Positions 10,327 through 42,953 are shown, counted from the stretch's first letter. The stretch is DNA of 64,000 nucleotides from Coprothermobacteraceae bacterium (GCA_013178255.1 JABLWY010000001.1:364503-428502), one strand, 5' to 3'. Translations and numbers: made by a program. Notes: a model not told the origin generated them from the sequence alone.

Positions 10327-11358
10327 GTGGCAGACATACTCATCATCGATGATTCCTTACTGGTAAGAAGGCTAGCTTGCGATGTACTAGTCAAAGAGCT
10401 GGGTGTTTCATGCCATGAAGCCAGCACGCTCAAAGAAGCACTATCGTTGGTAAAGAGCAGGCATTACGAGGTCGTATTGTTGGACTATGTGCTTCCTGAC
10501 GGCAACGGTTTGGAACTGCTGAAGAGAGCTAAACCGTACGTGACTGGGCGAGTACTCCTCTTCTCAAGCCTTGCCGAAGAGGGGGCGGAGGTAACCCTTA
10601 AGGCCTTGGAAGCGGGTGCAGTGGACTTCATCCTCAAGCCTAACCTCAGGTACATGTTAGAACAGGACTTTGCCCGTGAATTGACGGACAAGGTATCGAG
10701 TTTGCTCACTTCGGCATACGATCGCGGTACAGAGAAGCACTTGCGCGCGAAGAAGCTGCATGTCAGGAATCACCATGTTAACATCCAGCCAAGGTCTGAA
10801 GGCGTTATCGCAGTGGCCTCGTCTATGGGTGGCCCCCAGGCTCTGAGGCGTTTCTTCGCTAGATTTGGTACCCTGGGTTTGCCAGTGGTAGTAGCTCAAC
10901 ATATGCCGCCGGGCTTCACCCGGAACTTGGCGCAGCATATCCACCAGCAGAGTGGTCTCAAAGTGTTGGAAGCGGATACTGATATGGACTTGAAGCCTGA
11001 GACTGTATATGTGGTGGCCGGGGGTAAGCACGGGGCTGTGGAAAAGGGGCGGCTTAAGGTATTTGACGGCCCTCCTGTGAATGGTGTTAAGCCCGCTGCT
11101 GACGTGTTGTTTTACTCTTGTGCAGAGTCCTACGGTAAGCGCGTGGTGGGTGTCGTATTGACGGGCATGGGGAAAGACGGACTCGATGGCAGCAAACGTA
11201 TCAAGGAGAAGGGCGGCACTGTCTTGGCTGAGTCGAAGGATAGCGCAGCGGTTTGGGGTATGCCAGGTGAAGTAGTAAAAGCGGGTTTTGCTGACTTTGT
11301 CGGTGCGGTCGATGTGCTGCCTGAGAAGGTAAAGGAGGTCGTGGAGTCGTGGAGTTAG
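10327..11358 (+). CDS. cheB: Chemotaxis protein-glutamate methylesterase CheB (receiver plus methylesterase domains)
   Basis: N-terminal receiver (ILIIDDSLLVRR...VLLDYVLPDGNG). C-terminal CheB methylesterase (VIAVASSMGGPQAL...VVVAQHMPPGFT...). Confidence 0.9.
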   Translation: MADILIIDDSLLVRRLACDVLVKELGVSCHEASTLKEALSLVKSRHYEVVLLDYVLPDGNGLELLKRAKPYVTGRVLLFSSLAEEGAEVTLKALEAGAVDFILKPNLRYMLEQDFARELTDKVSSLLTSAYDRGTEKHLRAKKLHVRNHHVNIQPRSEGVIAVASSMGGPQALRRFFARFGTLGLPVVVAQHMPPGFTRNLAQHIHQQSGLKVLEADTDMDLKPETVYVVAGGKHGAVEKGRLKVFDGPPVNGVKPAADVLFYSCAESYGKRVVGVVLTGMGKDGLDGSKRIKEKGGTVLAESKDSAAVWGMPGEVVKAGFADFVGAVDVLPEKVKEVVESWS

Positions 11359-12104
11359 ACATCCTAATTGACTACCTGATCCGTTATAGGGAATTTGACT
11401 TGTCCGGATACAGCAAGAGCACGCTAACACGAAGAACGGCTTACTTCATGGGCATCTACGGCATAACCAGCGTGCAAGAACTAGCTGACAAGTTAGTACG
11501 CGATAACACTCTATTTCAGGACTTCTTAGACAAGCTGACTATCAACGTTACGGAGTTCTTCAGAGATCCCTGCGCTTGGACAGAACTTGTCAAACTGTTG
11601 GCACCTTTTCGGTCCAAGTCCCTTAGTGCATGGTCGGCGGGTTGCAGTGTGGGGTGTGAACCCTATACCTTAGCAATGGTACTTAAGGAAAACGGTTTTA
11701 GCGCACGCCGGATATTAGCCACAGACATAGACAAGGTGGCTTTACAAAGAGCTCGAGAGGGCATATACGAACTCAAGGAGGTCAAGAGGGTTCCACCACC
11801 CTACATGAAGTACTTCTCCAAGGTGGGTGACAGATACGCAGTAGTTGAGAGCATAAAGAAGATGGTTACTTTCAGGCATCAAAACTTGCTCAAGGACGAC
11901 TTTCCCCAGGAGGAGATGGACCTCATTCTATTCCGCAACGTAGTGATCTACTTCAATCAGGAAAGCCACGAACTCTTGTGGGGGAAGTTCTCCAAAGCGC
12001 TCAAACCCGGTGGGTTGCTCTTTGTGGGCGGCTCAGAAGTCATATTTGATCCCAAGAAATACGACCTTAAGCTGTTGAGCCACGGTTTTTATCGTAGAGT
12101 ATAG
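11349..12104 (+). CDS. cheR: Chemotaxis protein methyltransferase CheR
   Basis: INVTEFFRDP motif and the SAM-binding WSAGCSVGCEPYTLAMV motif. 10 nt overlap with cheB. Confidence 0.9.
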   Translation: MELDILIDYLIRYREFDLSGYSKSTLTRRTAYFMGIYGITSVQELADKLVRDNTLFQDFLDKLTINVTEFFRDPCAWTELVKLLAPFRSKSLSAWSAGCSVGCEPYTLAMVLKENGFSARRILATDIDKVALQRAREGIYELKEVKRVPPPYMKYFSKVGDRYAVVESIKKMVTFRHQNLLKDDFPQEEMDLILFRNVVIYFNQESHELLWGKFSKALKPGGLLFVGGSEVIFDPKKYDLKLLSHGFYRRV

Positions 12105-13863
12105 TAACCTGTTCGCACAAAGATACGTTGTCTGTGTAGGATAACTCATGTCCGTCCGATAGTATCCTCAAGGGTTTGCGATCCAACACTCCCAGATCAT
12201 TCAGATAGGCCAACAGGCTTGCCAGCGTTTCGCCTTCGTCCACAGGTACCACAATGTTTTCAGAGCCCACGCTGACCTTTACCTTTGAGAAGGATACCTG
12301 TTTGTAGACAACTCCAGGCATGATGAAATCCGGTCCTTTAAGCCTTATCAGTTCCCTTTTCACCCTAGTCAAGTACTCTTCCAACTCTCTCCTCGTACTC
12401 GGGAAAAACCTGAGCTTGACGCCTGGCACGGGTGCAGAGATAACCCTACCTTTATCATCCACCAAGGAAATAGGGACCCTCTCCCGTGTGTTTGTTTCAA
12501 TAATCACATAAAAATCAGACTTGATAGAACGTCCTAACCTCTCCACTACAATCTCGTCGCCATCACCTACTTGGTCCTCAGCAAGCGCTGCGCGGCCATT
12601 GACCCTGTACTCCAGCTCATTTTCCTCATGCACAACTAGATCTTCCGTATCTGAACCTACCTTGACCTGTAGCAGGATGGTTTCACGATCCAAGAGTCTT
12701 TCTAAGTCCAGCTCTGCTCTACGTAAGGCTGATTCGACGGTAGGTCTTTCATATCTTAAGAAGTAAGCTGGTTTGTTCTGCACAAGGATCTTTGCCACGT
12801 TCCTTTCAGGTGATAGTCTGGCCAATCCTAACGCTACGGCCCATTCTGGTTTCTGCAACTCCCCTTCGGCTTTCAGCTTGGCAACGTGAACCATTTCGCT
12901 GGGTATGTCCAGAACTCTTGCTAGGTACTCCGCTAGCCTTGGGGTCAAGGACCCTCCTCCTACCAGTGCTACCGCTGACGGGGCTTTCTTGTCGTTGGCT
13001 TCAACTATTATGGCAGCTATCGTGTTTGCAAGGACTACAGATGCTTCTTCTATGCCCTTTAAGAGATCTTCTTTCCTTATGTTTACGGCCTTCCCTACCA
13101 CGTTGAGCACTTTCTGCGACTTAGGTCTTACTTTGAGTCTTTCTGCTACGTCGATGGGAATCATGAATTTCTGACTCAGGAACTGCGTTACGAAATCTCC
13201 GGCCATAGCCACTGATGAGAAGTTGTATACAGCTCCATCACGAAATACAGTTACGTCTGAAGTACCAGCTCCTACATCCACCAGGGCTATGTTGAAATAG
13301 CGTAGCTCAGGTGGTACAGCTGCTTCTTTGCTTGCCACTGCTTCGCTGGATATGCTCCAGATCTCCAAACCAGTATCTTTGACAGCTTTGATGAGCGATA
13401 ACACAGTGTCCTTGCGGAAGAATTGTAGAACTACCCTGGCTCTCAATTCTTTGCCATGCCTACCTACGGGGTTGGATACAGTCATATCGTCTAGTAACCA
13501 CTTAGACACATCGAAGTCTGCCAACAGGTATCCTTCAATGTGAGCGTTCCTCGTAACGTCTAGCAATAAGGACAAGACGTCATTCTCCTTGACAAACTCT
13601 CCTTGGATCGTTTTTCTTCCTTCTACGACTCGCACGGCCATACTCTTCCCGGCTACTGCCAATGCAACAGGCAGTGTCATGTCTAGGCCACTCCTCTCTA
13701 AGAAAAGTGACAGTTCTTTAGTGGCCATAGGTACGTTTTCCACTTGTCCGTCTCTCAGCACAGCGAACGCATGTTTAAGAGAGGCATGCCGTGCAATTTG
13801 CCCGTCCCTGACTTCCAAGGCAGCGAACTTGTGAGTGCCGATGTCAAGGGCCAAGAAGTTCAT
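12067..13863 (-). CDS. FtsA/PilM-like actin-fold ATPase with about 200 aa C-terminal extension (two predicted beta-grasp-like modules)
   Basis: Actin-fold ATPase motifs: LALDIGTHKFAAL (phosphate 1), NIALVDVGAGTSDVTVF (phosphate 2), ALVGGGSLTPRLAEYLARVLDIP (adenosine motif). The extra C-terminal region holds two ThiS/MoaD-like segments (…YRVNGRAALAEDQVGDGDEIVV… and …VSVGSENIVVPVDEGETLASLL…ILSDGHEL…VTILYD). ATGA overlap with the upstream FapA gene. 3' end overlaps the cheR 3' end by 38 bp. Confidence 0.6.
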   Translation of the reverse strand: MNFLALDIGTHKFAALEVRDGQIARHASLKHAFAVLRDGQVENVPMATKELSLFLERSGLDMTLPVALAVAGKSMAVRVVEGRKTIQGEFVKENDVLSLLLDVTRNAHIEGYLLADFDVSKWLLDDMTVSNPVGRHGKELRARVVLQFFRKDTVLSLIKAVKDTGLEIWSISSEAVASKEAAVPPELRYFNIALVDVGAGTSDVTVFRDGAVYNFSSVAMAGDFVTQFLSQKFMIPIDVAERLKVRPKSQKVLNVVGKAVNIRKEDLLKGIEEASVVLANTIAAIIVEANDKKAPSAVALVGGGSLTPRLAEYLARVLDIPSEMVHVAKLKAEGELQKPEWAVALGLARLSPERNVAKILVQNKPAYFLRYERPTVESALRRAELDLERLLDRETILLQVKVGSDTEDLVVHEENELEYRVNGRAALAEDQVGDGDEIVVERLGRSIKSDFYVIIETNTRERVPISLVDDKGRVISAPVPGVKLRFFPSTRRELEEYLTRVKRELIRLKGPDFIMPGVVYKQVSFSKVKVSVGSENIVVPVDEGETLASLLAYLNDLGVLDRKPLRILSDGHELSYTDNVSLCEQVTILYDKNRGSTA

Positions 13864-15440
13864 TTCATCACCACTCGTGGTATGGGAGGCGGTGACGTAT
13901 ATGGATAGAACCGTATTTCTCCGTTTTCGTAGACAAACAGGACGTAAGAAAGTTCCGACCTGACCAAGTAGGAAGCGGCTCCGAACCTTATTTCAACGTT
14001 TGGGTACAACTTCTCTTTGATGAAAATCCTCGCCTTCTTTAGTTCTTCCTGTCTTTGATTGAGCAAGTCCTTAAGATGCTCATTTAGCCGATCTGTGTCC
14101 CTTTCCAAAATCGCAATTTCCTCATCGTACAGTTTCGCCATGCTTGGTGATTTCTTAGTTAGGGCCTCTAGTTCGCGTAGCCGTGCCTTCTTAGCGGAGA
14201 TGGCTTCCACTACGCGTTTGTATTCCGCTGTCAGTTTCTCAGGCTCAACGATTTGCAGCTCCACTCTTTCCGCTAGGTCGTTGCCGACAATAGGCGCTAC
14301 CACTATGTGTTCAGCGCGTATCGTCGCGCCAGAGACCCTTGCTTTGGGGTGTACCAAGTACAGATCGCGGCACTCTACTTTACTAAACAAGACACCAGTT
14401 TCCGCCACCACCAAAGGTGCCTTTACCGTTGCATGTATCAGCTGCCGCGCTATGACTGCGTTTCCAGCTTCCAACAGGGCTTTGCCATTTCCTGCTACCA
14501 CACCGTCTACCTTGATGTTCTGCCCTGCTACTAGCTTCGCTCCCTCTACCACGCCGTGCACATGGATGTTTACCTTGGAGTTCACAGAGAAGCCTTCCCT
14601 AACTGTGCCAAAGATTTGAACCGTCTCTACTACGCCTTCGATGTTACCCGTATGGTAGTCCACGTCCCCAGATACGTTGAGGATCGAGGAGACGCTAATC
14701 CTATTTCCTTCACGGATAACAACGCCGTCTGACTTGGCCACAATTCTTAGTCCATCATCCGTGACCTCCGTGCCGCGACCCGCGATGCGCCGAAGGTCTA
14801 TATCCATGCCATCTTTGGCTGTAAGTGTCTGCCCCGTCACGGTAAACCCAGGTTTGCCTTTGGTGGCTGGCGTCTTCTCCACTAACACCGTTCCCGCGCT
14901 CACGTAGTCCCATTTCGACATGAGTTCTCTGAAGTCAATGTGGCTTTGGTCCTGGTCTATCTCCACAGGACGTTGGTAAACCCACGCAAGTTGCGCGTCT
15001 TGCCCCTTTTCGGGCGGCAGACCTTTTGCTATCATTACTCGCTGAAGCGGGTGCTCCAATACATCTTTTGCCACGTCTATTTCCACACCAACTATTCCGT
15101 TAGATCTAATGCTGTCTAACAGCTCCTGAGGGGTTAACTGAAACGTGCAGAAACCTGGTAGGTACGTAGCATATGCTGCAAGCTTGTCCTCATCAATCTC
15201 GACGATTAACTCAGGGGGAACAGGATCTGTACTTATAGTGAACCATTGGCCAGGGTTCTTTATAGCCTGGATGATAGCGTCTGGAAAAGTGACCTTTAGC
15301 CTGACTCTTGACAAGCTTGCTATAACGCGCGTGGGAGGCACGCCTGCCTCATCTACTTTTATCTCCACCTTGTCGTTTTGACAACGCAGTTTCAAGCCGT
15401 CAAGGGTCAACTCAAAATGCTCAGTAGTGTCATTACTCAT
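13860..15440 (-). CDS. FapA-like flagellar assembly protein (DUF342)
   Basis: 526 aa. Central G/V-rich beta-helix-like repeats (GNIEGVVETVQIFGTVREGFSVNSKVNIHVHGVVEGAKLVAGQNIKVDGVVAGNGKALLEAGNAVIA). C-terminal coiled coil (…KKARLRELEALTKK…LKDLLNQRQEELKKARIF), as in the DUF342/FapA family. Confidence 0.65.
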   Translation of the reverse strand: MSNDTTEHFELTLDGLKLRCQNDKVEIKVDEAGVPPTRVIASLSRVRLKVTFPDAIIQAIKNPGQWFTISTDPVPPELIVEIDEDKLAAYATYLPGFCTFQLTPQELLDSIRSNGIVGVEIDVAKDVLEHPLQRVMIAKGLPPEKGQDAQLAWVYQRPVEIDQDQSHIDFRELMSKWDYVSAGTVLVEKTPATKGKPGFTVTGQTLTAKDGMDIDLRRIAGRGTEVTDDGLRIVAKSDGVVIREGNRISVSSILNVSGDVDYHTGNIEGVVETVQIFGTVREGFSVNSKVNIHVHGVVEGAKLVAGQNIKVDGVVAGNGKALLEAGNAVIARQLIHATVKAPLVVAETGVLFSKVECRDLYLVHPKARVSGATIRAEHIVVAPIVGNDLAERVELQIVEPEKLTAEYKRVVEAISAKKARLRELEALTKKSPSMAKLYDEEIAILERDTDRLNEHLKDLLNQRQEELKKARIFIKEKLYPNVEIRFGAASYLVRSELSYVLFVYENGEIRFYPYTSPPPIPRVVMK

Positions 15441-16260
15441 TCTTGTTGCTCACCATTTGCACGCCTGTCATGGCGATGGGAATGCAACCTGCCTCTTTAA
15501 GTACTTCGGTTATCCTAGGTTGCATTTCAAAGTGAAAGGGCCACAGGTCTTGATTCTTTACCAATGCTCTCAATACTATGCGCGTTCCTTTCTCCGTCAG
15601 TTCTGAGTATCCTGATGGGGGCTCCAGAACCCTTGGATCTGCCCTCACTACATCTAATAGGCGGTCTTTGACTTCTGCGGCCTTGTCCCAACAGTCTACG
15701 TAGAAGGAGAAGTTCCACAGCCTAGTACTGTTGGCTGATGCATTTACAATGGGGCCGTCCAGCAGCAACTTGTTCGGCAGCATCACTAGTTGCTGTTCAA
15801 GTGTCAATACTGTGGTGCTCAGCAAGTTTATTCCCACCACAGTTCCTGAAATGCTGCCTACTGAGACCCAATGTCCAATGTCAAACGGCTTCTGCACTAG
15901 TATCAAGGCTCCAGCAAAGAGGTTAGACAACACGTTTTGGGTCGCGAACGCTATGACTAGACCTGTTATGCCAGCTCCCGTGAGTATGGACACAGACGAT
16001 ATACCCGCGATCCTAAGAGCTGCCACCAATGCGGCAGCTAGTACCGAATAATACAGTAGGGAAAGCCAGAAGTTCACAGTGATACGTGAAATGCCTTGAT
16101 ACCGTTCTAAGCGCCTACGCGATGAATTCACCAATGCGGCCGCACCTTTTTGCACTACGACGAACAGCAGCAGCGCCGATACTACATAAAGGGATCGCCC
16201 CGTTGCATTGGTCAAAAACGCGGCCACGTCATCAAGGAAACGGGTAACGACGTCCCACAT
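15433..16260 (-). CDS. Small-conductance mechanosensitive channel, MscS family
   Basis: Three N-terminal TM helices followed by the MscS beta-domain signature (…NLFAGALILVQKPFDIGHWVSVGSISGTVVGINLLSTTVLT…). 8 nt overlap with the FapA start. Confidence 0.8.
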   Translation of the reverse strand: MWDVVTRFLDDVAAFLTNATGRSLYVVSALLLFVVVQKGAAALVNSSRRRLERYQGISRITVNFWLSLLYYSVLAAALVAALRIAGISSVSILTGAGITGLVIAFATQNVLSNLFAGALILVQKPFDIGHWVSVGSISGTVVGINLLSTTVLTLEQQLVMLPNKLLLDGPIVNASANSTRLWNFSFYVDCWDKAAEVKDRLLDVVRADPRVLEPPSGYSELTEKGTRIVLRALVKNQDLWPFHFEMQPRITEVLKEAGCIPIAMTGVQMVSNKNE

Positions 16261-16305
16261 AAGGTCATTATAAGCGAGAAGTGGGTTTGTCAGCTAACCA
16301 ATGCG

Positions 16306-16884
16306 TCAAAAAACCACAGTGAACGGTACCTTCACATTGTCGATTTCACTACCATCTTTGGGTGAATGCGTATACACTTCCAAAACAAGGTCCACGGCAG
16401 TAGCTGTTTGCCACTCTTGAGGCACTTGGATCACTTGTGCGAAAGCCGAAAAAGTCCCCATCTCGCCACCTTGCGCTATGAAAGCACCATATTCATGTAC
16501 TTCAGTGCCTTTCCAAAGTCTGATCAGGTAATTGTTCTCAAAGGTACGAGCATACCCCGACACAGGAACAAATGGACCCAGCACCAAAGCGTTGTTGTAC
16601 GGGTACGCCACCAAGATGTTGATCTCAGTTAACCGTTGCAGTCCGATGAGCGTGGTGCCTGAGTAGGTAACCGACGCCGAATTCTGCGGCAGAATTAGTG
16701 GTAAATTGACAGTGGAAGTCAGGGCAAGCTCCCCTCCTGGGGTTTCTAAGATCACTGTGCGACTCGTGACAACGGCTACTGTGGCAGTCACTGTCGTAGT
16801 CTCGGCTGCGGGCTGCTGTGGTTGGCACGCCCAAAGGAATATGGCCAACAAGACAGCCAATAGCAACGCTGTCCTACCCCTCAC
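16306..16884 (-). CDS. Predicted lipoprotein of unknown function
   Basis: Signal peptide with lipobox (…LLAIFLWAC QPQ). 192 aa with no recognisable catalytic motif. Confidence 0.5.
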   Translation of the reverse strand: MRGRTALLLAVLLAIFLWACQPQQPAAETTTVTATVAVVTSRTVILETPGGELALTSTVNLPLILPQNSASVTYSGTTLIGLQRLTEINILVAYPYNNALVLGPFVPVSGYARTFENNYLIRLWKGTEVHEYGAFIAQGGEMGTFSAFAQVIQVPQEWQTATAVDLVLEVYTHSPKDGSEIDNVKVPFTVVF

Positions 16885-16918
16885 GTTTTGCCACCCCCTT
16901 AGGCAAAAGATTATACTC

Positions 16919-16930
16919 CCTGTGCACAGG
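16919..16930. promoter_or_regulatory. Perfect 12 bp palindrome CCTGTGCACAGG in the divergent lipoprotein/ABC-2 promoter region, 2 nt after a TATACT -10-like hexamer
   Basis: Self-complementary 12-mer. TATACT at 16912-16917. ABC gene RBS and TTG start lie about 30-45 nt downstream. Confidence 0.4.
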
Positions 16931-16962
16931 AATTAGAATGTTCTCGTAGGAGGTGGTGTTTT

Positions 16963-17676
16963 TTGGTAGAAATAAGCGGCTTGACAAAACGATTTGGAAA
17001 TGTTCAAGCATTAGCTGGCATCAGCTTGAGGGCTGAACCTGGTAAAGTCACAGGGCTTTTGGGCCCAAACGGGGCAGGAAAGACCACGACCATTCGCATA
17101 CTAAGCACCATTCTCAGGGCAGACGCTGGGACTGCCAAAGTGAACGGATTTGACGTTGAACGTGAGCAGGATAAGGTCAGGGCATCCATGGGCGTGGTTT
17201 TTGAGAACTCCGGGTTATACAGGAGGCTTACCGGCACTGAGAATGTACTCTACTTCGCTGACTTGGCAGGAGTTCCGAGGAGCCGAGCTTTGAAGGTGTT
17301 GGAAGAACTTTACGCACTTCTGGATGTGGATTTTGGTGACCGTTTGGCAGTTGGCTATTCCAGGGGTATGGCTCAGAAGATTAACTTGATCAGGGCCGTC
17401 GTACATGACCCTCCTGTGGTGGTCTTGGACGAACCCACCGCTGGTCTCGATGTTCCTAGCACCTTAGCTGTCAGGTCCTTCATTGAAAAGCAGAAGGAGA
17501 AGGGGAAAACCGTGCTTCTGAGCACACACCTCATGAATGAAGTAGAGATGCTGTGTGACTACGTCTTCATCATCAACAAAGGCGTCATAGCCGTAGAGGG
17601 GACTCCCTCAGGCATAAAGCGAGACTTGGGCGCTGCCAATTTGGAAGAAGCCTTCATGAAGGCGGTGAAAGAATGA
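16963..17676 (+). CDS. ABC transporter ATP-binding protein (ABC-2 subfamily)
   Basis: Walker A LLGPNGAGKTTT, ABC signature YSRGMAQK, Walker B VVVLDEPTAGLD. TTG start with RBS GGAGGTG. Confidence 0.85.
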   Translation: MVEISGLTKRFGNVQALAGISLRAEPGKVTGLLGPNGAGKTTTIRILSTILRADAGTAKVNGFDVEREQDKVRASMGVVFENSGLYRRLTGTENVLYFADLAGVPRSRALKVLEELYALLDVDFGDRLAVGYSRGMAQKINLIRAVVHDPPVVVLDEPTAGLDVPSTLAVRSFIEKQKEKGKTVLLSTHLMNEVEMLCDYVFIINKGVIAVEGTPSGIKRDLGAANLEEAFMKAVKE

Positions 17677-42719: not shown

Positions 42720-42953
42720 ATGAAGGTCAAAGTGTTTGGTCACCTTAGGCACCTGCTTGGTGTCCCCGAACAAGGGATCGAGGTGTTGTTGGACGAGCCT
42801 GTGAGCCTGCAGGAACTAGTGAACAGGCTCTGGAATTTGCCTTTCACGTTGTTTGTCGGAGCCAAAGTGGGCGACATCAAAGTTTCCGGAGACTACGTAG
42901 TTACGGGGCAAGAGGACGAGATAGTCTTGTTGTCCCCAGTGGGTGGCGGTTGA
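42720..42953 (+). CDS. MoaD/ThiS-like ubiquitin-fold protein ending in Gly-Gly-Gly
   Basis: 77 aa: MKVKVFGHLRHLLG…VGAKVGDIKVSGDYVVTGQEDEIVLLSPVGGG. Beta-grasp sulfur-carrier pattern with a C-terminal GG(G). Confidence 0.55.
   Translation: MKVKVFGHLRHLLGVPEQGIEVLLDEPVSLQELVNRLWNLPFTLFVGAKVGDIKVSGDYVVTGQEDEIVLLSPVGGG

Follow-up and report, generated by a model that had tools for sequence, protein, structure and literature searches.

A lineage-restricted pairing of fapA with an FtsA/PilM-superfamily ATPase carrying a tandem beta-grasp tail at the end of a flagellar superoperon in Coprothermobacteraceae

The stretch of DNA considered here, a 64,000-nucleotide window from a Coprothermobacteraceae bacterium (GCA_013178255.1, JABLWY010000001.1:364503-428502), carries on its minus strand the contiguous unit mscS-fapA-X, where X denotes a gene (12067..13863) whose 598-aa product, according to the map of open reading frames (ORFs), Pfam/NCBIfam and AlphaFold, combines an FtsA-superfamily ATPase with a tandem beta-grasp tail. 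Upstream of X lie fapA (DUF342; 13860..15440, 526 aa) and mscS (15433..16260, 275 aa), the first cistron of this conserved three-gene unit, which encodes a small-conductance mechanosensitive channel. Both junctions overlap when read from the DNA: mscS and fapA share 8 nt in ATGAGTAA, and the stop and start codons of fapA and X share the 4 nt ATGA (13860..13863) in GTGATGAAATGAAC. Tail to tail with the unit lies the end of a flagellar/chemotaxis superoperon, the last gene of which, cheR on the plus strand (11349..12104; Pfam CheR), overlaps X by 38 bp (12067..12104, both strands). The first 12 kb of the window form the contiguous block motB-fliL-fliM-fliN/Y-cheY-fliO-fliP-fliQ-fliR-flhB-flhA-flhF-flhG-cheB-cheR, in which six genes were called by Pfam and the others by position and annotated relatives; flhG is situated 2 kb from X. 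These ORFs, their coordinates and the three overlaps agree exactly with a preliminary description of the locus.

The actin-fold ATPase core of X comprises residues 1-350 (12814..13863, minus strand) and is recognized by Pfam and NCBIfam as FtsA/PilM_2 and as an FtsA/PilM/MreB-type ATPase. An AlphaFold model built with 113 homologues is confident throughout (predicted local distance difference test, pLDDT, 93; predicted template-modelling score, pTM, 0.78), and Foldseek ranks the FtsA structures 7q6f, 7q6d, 4a2a and 1e4g first (E 1e-23 to 1e-29), with PilM and MreB next; the superposition on 7q6f extends over 383 columns with E 3.5e-29 and a target-normalised TM-score (TMt) of 0.82. The phosphate-1 (DIGTHKF), phosphate-2 (DVGAGTSD) and adenosine (GGGS) motifs are present, and residues D7, G9, T10, D196, G198-T201, D203, G302 and G303 are invariant across 113 X-family members. 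Moreover, the FtsA-type arrangement of subdomains 1A, 1C, 2A and 2B is recovered by Foldseek, with a putative 1C (SHS2) subdomain at residues 72-144 (13432..13650, minus strand) that is indicated by the whole-core superposition and a weak Pfam SHS2_FTSA match (E 0.0098). The FtsA/PilM-type ATPase of the preliminary description, whose quoted peptides and motifs all occur in the translation, is thus borne out.

Since X is 100% identical to a protein named 'cell division protein FtsA [Coprothermobacteraceae bacterium]' at NCBI, and since FtsA gives its best matches in both sequence and structure, the database name could be taken literally, X being the division FtsA of the organism. We consider this very improbable. 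The score against the FtsA equivalog model TIGR01174 is 92.7 bits, far below the cut-off of 175.85, and that against NF007009 is 61 bits, with a cut-off of 409. The amphipathic membrane-targeting C-terminal helix of FtsA is missing from the AlphaFold models of X, which contain no helix past residue 556 and end in a beta-strand (585-590) and the low-confidence residues KNRGSTA, so that the beta-grasp array and a short low-confidence end stand in its place. Neither an ftsZ/dcw context nor a second FtsA-like ORF was found within the window, and X is absent from Coprothermobacter proteolyticus-like contigs that have lost their flagellar genes (see below). X is therefore not the division protein FtsA. 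An identity as PilM was likewise rejected, the match to Pfam PilM_2 being marginal (27.2 bits, gathering score 27), that to TIGR01175 reaching 22 bits against a cut-off of 133, and pilN, pilO, pilP and pilQ being absent near X in the window and in annotated relatives.

The remainder of the protein forms a chain of three beta-grasp modules. Module A (residues 356-448; 12520..12798), delimited by the secondary structure of the model and by hhalign, is ThiS-like with an inserted beta-hairpin and holds VNGRAALAEDQVGDGDEIVV; module B (residues 452-523; 12295..12510), placed by hhalign and mapped ThiS matches, is the most degenerate of the three; and module C (residues 525-590; 12094..12291), assigned from the fold model and a fold search, displays the classic beta-beta-alpha-beta-beta order, all on the minus strand. 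Modelled on their own, residues 350-598 reach a pLDDT of 92.5, and Foldseek aligns them best, over 245-330 columns, with linear tetra-, tri- and di-ubiquitin chains, which identifies the tail as a head-to-tail beta-grasp array. In addition, the modules resemble one another when sub-alignments of the family are compared by hhalign: A and C match with a probability of 98.7% (E 1.6e-16), A and B as well as B and C with 97.3% each. The fold is that of the ThiS/MoaD family. Hence the beta-grasp tail, for which structure prediction had been proposed in the preliminary description, is upheld by AlphaFold, Foldseek and hhalign as to its fold, though not as to its count of two modules: the two segments noticed there are modules A and C, and module B had been overlooked. 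Among homologues, P0011, P0021 and P0101 pass the Pfam ThiS model (38-49.5 bits, cut-off 22.5) and also match Ub-Mut7C and TGS; via the family alignment, their ThiS matches fall on X residues 466-525, that is, on module B. Direct hhalign comparison of the modules with sequences of E. coli ThiS, MoaD and ubiquitin yielded partial, weak matches to MoaD (probability 51-82%) and none to ubiquitin, and is not relied on.

The fold and the Pfam similarity to ThiS, MoaD, SAMP and Ub-Mut7C raise the question of whether the modules act as sulfur carriers or as conjugatable ubiquitin-like modifiers. This is the least probable of the readings weighed here, because the modules are internal or lack a Gly-Gly end: none of the three terminates in Gly-Gly, and the protein ends in ...ILYDKNRGSTA, which excludes a carrier or conjugation role in practice. 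Furthermore, the immediate annotated neighbourhood of X contains no E1/ThiF/MoeB-like gene, and the tail invariably comes as a fusion with the ATPase. Given that the modules are not free-standing, have no Gly-Gly and no E1-like partner, they are best read as fixed interaction domains rather than as carriers or modifiers.

X falls within a large, as yet unnamed branch of the FtsA/PilM superfamily, the hallmark of which is a tandem, non-conjugatable ubiquitin-like C-terminal array. A full-length search retrieved eight close relatives with 52-55% identity, all of 598 aa, and wider homologues of about 600-850 aa (E 1e-44 to 1e-33, query coverage up to 91%), so that the homology covers both the FtsA-like core and the tandem 'NG...GD' beta-grasp repeats. 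X has three beta-grasp modules, whereas most relatives of about 700 aa have some four to five, and the consensus of the broad set shows four to five 'NG...GD' repeats. When 1.84 billion representative proteins were searched with a profile of the tail alone, 1488 clusters (50% identity) passed E<=1e-3, and 557 of these also passed E<=1e-30. Among the best 150 matches, the tail starts at about residue 380 (range 338-468) in proteins of roughly 650-870 aa; in shorter matches it lies at or near residue 1, and these look like gene fragments. As full-length matches have about 380 aa of N-terminal sequence ahead of the tail, the tail is specific to the ATPase-tail architecture, and the family is large. 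Its hosts include, within the Bacillota, Bacillaceae, Clostridia, Negativicutes, Syntrophomonadaceae and Desulfotomaculia-like taxa, and besides these Thermotogota (Fervidobacterium), Elusimicrobiota and Coprothermobacterota. One 706-aa member (P0114) comes from a 337-kb contig labelled as the archaeon Methanolobus bombayensis, an assignment that may reflect horizontal transfer or assembly contamination. In a neighbour-joining tree of the ATPase core, the Coprothermobacter clade forms a long branch with no clear sister; 597-aa forms linked to min genes were tried as its closest kin and are not. A published description of the family was not found in the open literature.

Within Coprothermobacteraceae the three-gene unit is conserved. 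The order mscS-fapA-X with overlapping junctions recurs in three metagenomic loci (L006, L007, L008) and in C. proteolyticus DSM 5265 (L094), whose X is ACI16922.1 / B5Y7G2, at protein identities of 52-57%; the 4-nt fapA/X overlap is likewise present in L006, L008 and L094. In these relatives, too, the unit converges on cheR-cheB-flhG-flhF-flhA-flhB..., with an X/cheR overlap of 29 bp.

Natural deletion variants provide a further line of evidence. A metagenome search with the neighbouring ZnuA protein recovered C. proteolyticus-like contigs, four of which (L097, L098, L101, L102) carry the mscS-fapA-X arrangement, the L101 contig ending inside X with its cheR side unseen. Three others (L099, L100, L103) retain znuABC and mscS at 92-94% identity and are without X, cheR, cheB, flhG, flhF, flhA and flhB. 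In L099 (5672-5836) and L100 (1161-1325) only codons 1-55 of fapA remain, where homology to the type strain stops abruptly, and in L103 (8440-8460) the break falls at the very end of mscS, with no fapA at all; beyond the breaks follow the housekeeping genes DUF2225, an ABC transporter and PEPCK. The two different end-points denote two deletion forms that removed X together with the entire flagellar/chemotaxis block, which fits a published report of two C. proteolyticus isolates without flagellar genes. Hence X is suggested to be dispensable and thus not an essential FtsA. Moreover, mscS is separable from fapA-X, and the loss of fapA and X accompanies that of the flagellar genes, which is consistent with a flagellar role, albeit confounded by contiguity.

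Taken together, these data point to X as an ATP-dependent scaffold that acts with FapA at the flagellar pole in Coprothermobacteraceae, a proposal to which we assign an even chance. X would be a soluble protein whose actin-fold core binds ATP and, in the manner of FtsA and PilM, either self-associates or clamps a partner, and its rigid poly-ubiquitin-like arm would dock other proteins. In Coprothermobacteraceae only, X would be produced jointly with FapA, their reading frames overlapping, and would act with FapA, probably also with FlhF/FlhG, in flagellar placement or assembly. A Vibrio homologue of FapA is reportedly found at the flagellated pole.

Several observations weigh against this proposal. 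In a survey of 80 species-representative X-family loci outside the lineage (+-7 kb, phmmer and a FapA hidden Markov model, HMM), none contained DUF342/FapA, and the same holds for four further loci (Fervidobacterium, Sutcliffiella, Desulfofundulus and a 597-aa form). The neighbours of X in these loci are unrelated to flagella and differ lineage by lineage, TrkA being one instance. Same-strand neighbours overlap in 19 of 43 pairs within the window (44%), seven of them by 4 nt, so the fapA/X overlap alone is no proof of a functional link. A single deletion of physically contiguous genes can account for the joint loss with the flagellar genes, and the C. proteolyticus type strain has been described as non-motile. 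As for the docking arm, no Pfam model matched the tail of X itself, even at E<=10.

Much of this would follow if the fapA-X adjacency were meaningless in a compact genome of overlapping genes and X simply did its usual job, for instance as a scaffold in cell-envelope formation or morphogenesis; we regard this as unlikely, yet as the most serious competitor. The absence of a FapA neighbour from all 84 outside loci and the frequent overlaps in the window favour it, as do the varied and partly envelope- or shape-related contexts of X: aroA and ytxJ in Bacillaceae, WecG and CtsR in Syntrophomonas (WecG-X), nth upstream and VanW downstream in some Clostridia (X-VanW), and minC-minD-minE-X-rodA in four loci (L009/L010, L012, L021, L025). 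It is opposed by the persistence of gene order and 4-nt overlap across about 45% protein divergence in Coprothermobacteraceae, and by the fact that both deletion forms take X with fapA and the flagellar genes yet stop at mscS. On the side of FapA, two of three non-Coprothermobacter fapA genes examined (P0131, P0137) lie in the canonical order ...cheA-cheW-cheC-cheD-sigma28-fapA, the third being non-flagellar, and none of the three has an FtsA-like gene beside it. These surveys refute, for the family as a whole, the obligate partnership of DUF342 with this ATPase family that had previously been envisaged, and leave it as an arrangement peculiar to one lineage; conserved synteny exists within Coprothermobacteraceae and not in the wider X family. 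In other words, the fapA-X pairing is restricted to Coprothermobacteraceae.

Regarding neighbours of other X homologues, a cNMP-binding/DUF2225/TPR gene lies directly 5' of that of Desulfofundulus australicus (L004 4771-5862). DUF2225 thus occurs next to an X homologue and next to the flagellar deletion (L099 5242-5700), by coincidence or as a recurring neighbour. The min-linked members in L009/L010, L012, L021 and L025 have 597 aa and sit between minE and rodA in mreBCD-pbp2-minCDE-X-rodA; the source of L025 is a metagenome-assembled genome labelled Thermosediminibacterales.

The partner protein FapA is a clear family member, with FapA_N (PF20250; 14709..15206, minus strand) scoring 115.9 bits against a cut-off of 27 and FapA (PF03961), the beta-solenoid with coiled coil (13914..14684, minus strand), 138.1 bits against 31. 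According to a published analysis of flagellar superoperons, fapA is a standard member beside sigma-28, and in V. vulnificus a polar localisation of FapA tied to motility has been described. A paper relating FapA to MinC and flagella, or DUF342 to FtsA, was sought and none of relevance emerged. On the level of the family, MinC_C of Pfam is matched by 19 of 29 FapA members (best E 2e-6) and Bactofilin by 7, the family profile weakly matches four MinC structures and a bactofilin, hhalign aligns FapA with MinC over 34 columns (probability 78%, E 1.9e-5), and MinC ORFs in X-family loci are picked up by the FapA HMM. Hence the FapA solenoid is probably a MinC-C-type beta-helix, a likeness that, if confirmed, would also shed light on the workings of the poorly understood FapA family. 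Three FapA homologues of 659-691 aa (P0132, P0134, P0138) carry an additional Jag_N domain (PF14804).

This similarity permits a third reading, namely a Min-like module in which FapA would bind the MinD-type FlhG through its MinC-C-like solenoid and would control the ATP-dependent polar assembly of X; the poly-ubiquitin-like arm of X would serve as docking platform, in parallel to MinC/MinD on the division machinery, and X-type proteins would be clients of true MinCDE wherever their gene directly follows minE. The family-wide MinC matches just described, the position of X directly after minC-minD-minE in the four loci mentioned and the proximity of flhG in the window speak for such a module. 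We nevertheless deem it improbable: the MinC similarity is short and not significant for the FapA of the window itself, and the neighbour-joining tree does not place the min-linked X genes closest to the Coprothermobacter clade. The preferred interpretation remains a scaffold that acts alongside FapA at the flagellar pole.

The overlap of X with cheR had been taken to imply transcriptional interference between the two convergent operons. Overlap is seen in five of the ten convergent gene pairs of the window, and since overlapping genes are routine in such a compact genome, interference is not specifically indicated. The shared segment spans the low-confidence end of X (pLDDT<50, residues 595-598) and CheR residues past the Pfam domain; its RNA structure is, on both strands, no better than that of shuffled sequences (z -0.3 and -0.5), and a consensus scan for promoters and terminators (11300-17200) returned fewer matches than shuffled sequence, with no terminators detectable. 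Convergent read-through may occur, and nothing marks the overlap as a regulatory device.

At its other end, the unit is bounded by a 45-bp spacer 5' of mscS (16261..16305, minus strand), in which a perfect TATAAT, a candidate promoter, ends 6 nt ahead of the ATG and a Shine-Dalgarno sequence is lacking, suggesting a leaderless mscS mRNA; this reading of the sequence was not recovered by the consensus promoter scan. Beyond it lies a lipoprotein gene (16306..16884, minus strand) encoding a Gmad2 immunoglobulin-like domain (PF10648, E 4e-10). Its place is occupied by a divergent znuABC in Coprothermobacter relatives, so it is no conserved part of the operon; together with the TATAAT-bearing spacer, this corrects the preliminary description, in which the lipoprotein gene was listed as contiguous with the other three. 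In C. proteolyticus, TAAAAT precedes the mscS ATG by 4 nt, and in DSM 5265 the divergent start codons of znuA and mscS are 27 bp apart (L094 6574-6600), the spacer containing the inverted repeat AATGTTA-N4-TAACATT, possibly a Zur-type operator.

The channel encoded by mscS matches PF00924 (MS_channel_2nd) with 68 bits (cut-off 20.2) and exhibits the beta-domain and transmembrane helices of MscS; its 103 bits for NF007662 are under the cut-off of that subfamily model. Elsewhere in the window, a 77-aa ORF at 42720-42953 (plus strand), beginning MKVKVFGHLRHLLGVPEQGIEVLLDEPVSLQELV..., appears MoaD/ThiS-like by eye, has no Pfam match at E<=0.001, and is flanked by genes for a nitroreductase and a lipoate-protein ligase. 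Scans of the entire window detected 0 tRNA genes and 0 Rfam families at gathering score.

The bacterial actin homologues FtsA, MreB, ParM, PilM and MamK each organise a major cellular process. The family of X constitutes a further large branch, comprising at least 557 clusters at 50% identity with strong matches and distinguished by its poly-ubiquitin-like tail. It is now labelled 'cell division protein FtsA', and correcting this label matters for genome annotation. The Coprothermobacter operon offers a first functional handle on the branch through its link to FapA and the flagellar pole, and the natural deletion strains offer a second one, dispensability.

Compared with known systems, X shares with FtsA (7q6f, 4a2a, 1e4g) the actin-fold core, the three nucleotide-binding motifs and the best sequence and structure matches. 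It differs in its sub-equivalog score, the lack of an amphipathic C-terminal helix and of an ftsZ/dcw neighbourhood, about 250 additional C-terminal residues folded as three beta-grasp domains, and its absence from natural deletion variants. PilM belongs to the same FtsA-like fold class, and its role as a cytoplasmic scaffold clamping a partner peptide provides a plausible analogy for the action of X, although PilM proteins are devoid of a beta-grasp tail and X of pilN/O/P/Q neighbours. With ThiS, MoaD and ubiquitin the tail modules have the beta-grasp fold in common; they are distinguished by not being free-standing and by lacking both a C-terminal Gly-Gly and an associated E1-like enzyme, and it is linear poly-ubiquitin that gives the best superposition for the entire tail. 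As regards MinC-MinD-MinE, the FapA of the window is without the N-terminal domain of MinC; the likeness resides in the solenoid, which resembles the C-terminal beta-helix of MinC, in FlhG, a MinD-family ATPase, and in the X-family genes that directly follow minE in several genomes, the tie to X being one of gene context alone. Finally, whereas fapA usually follows sigma-28 and shares the strand of the che genes, the gene of the window is found on the opposite strand, between mscS and X, and so outside the customary superoperon position. Nonetheless, its product resembles the FapA/DUF342 proteins of V. vulnificus and of the superoperons (e.g., Borrelia bb0267) in possessing both Pfam domains, and the gene itself adjoins flagellar and chemotaxis genes.

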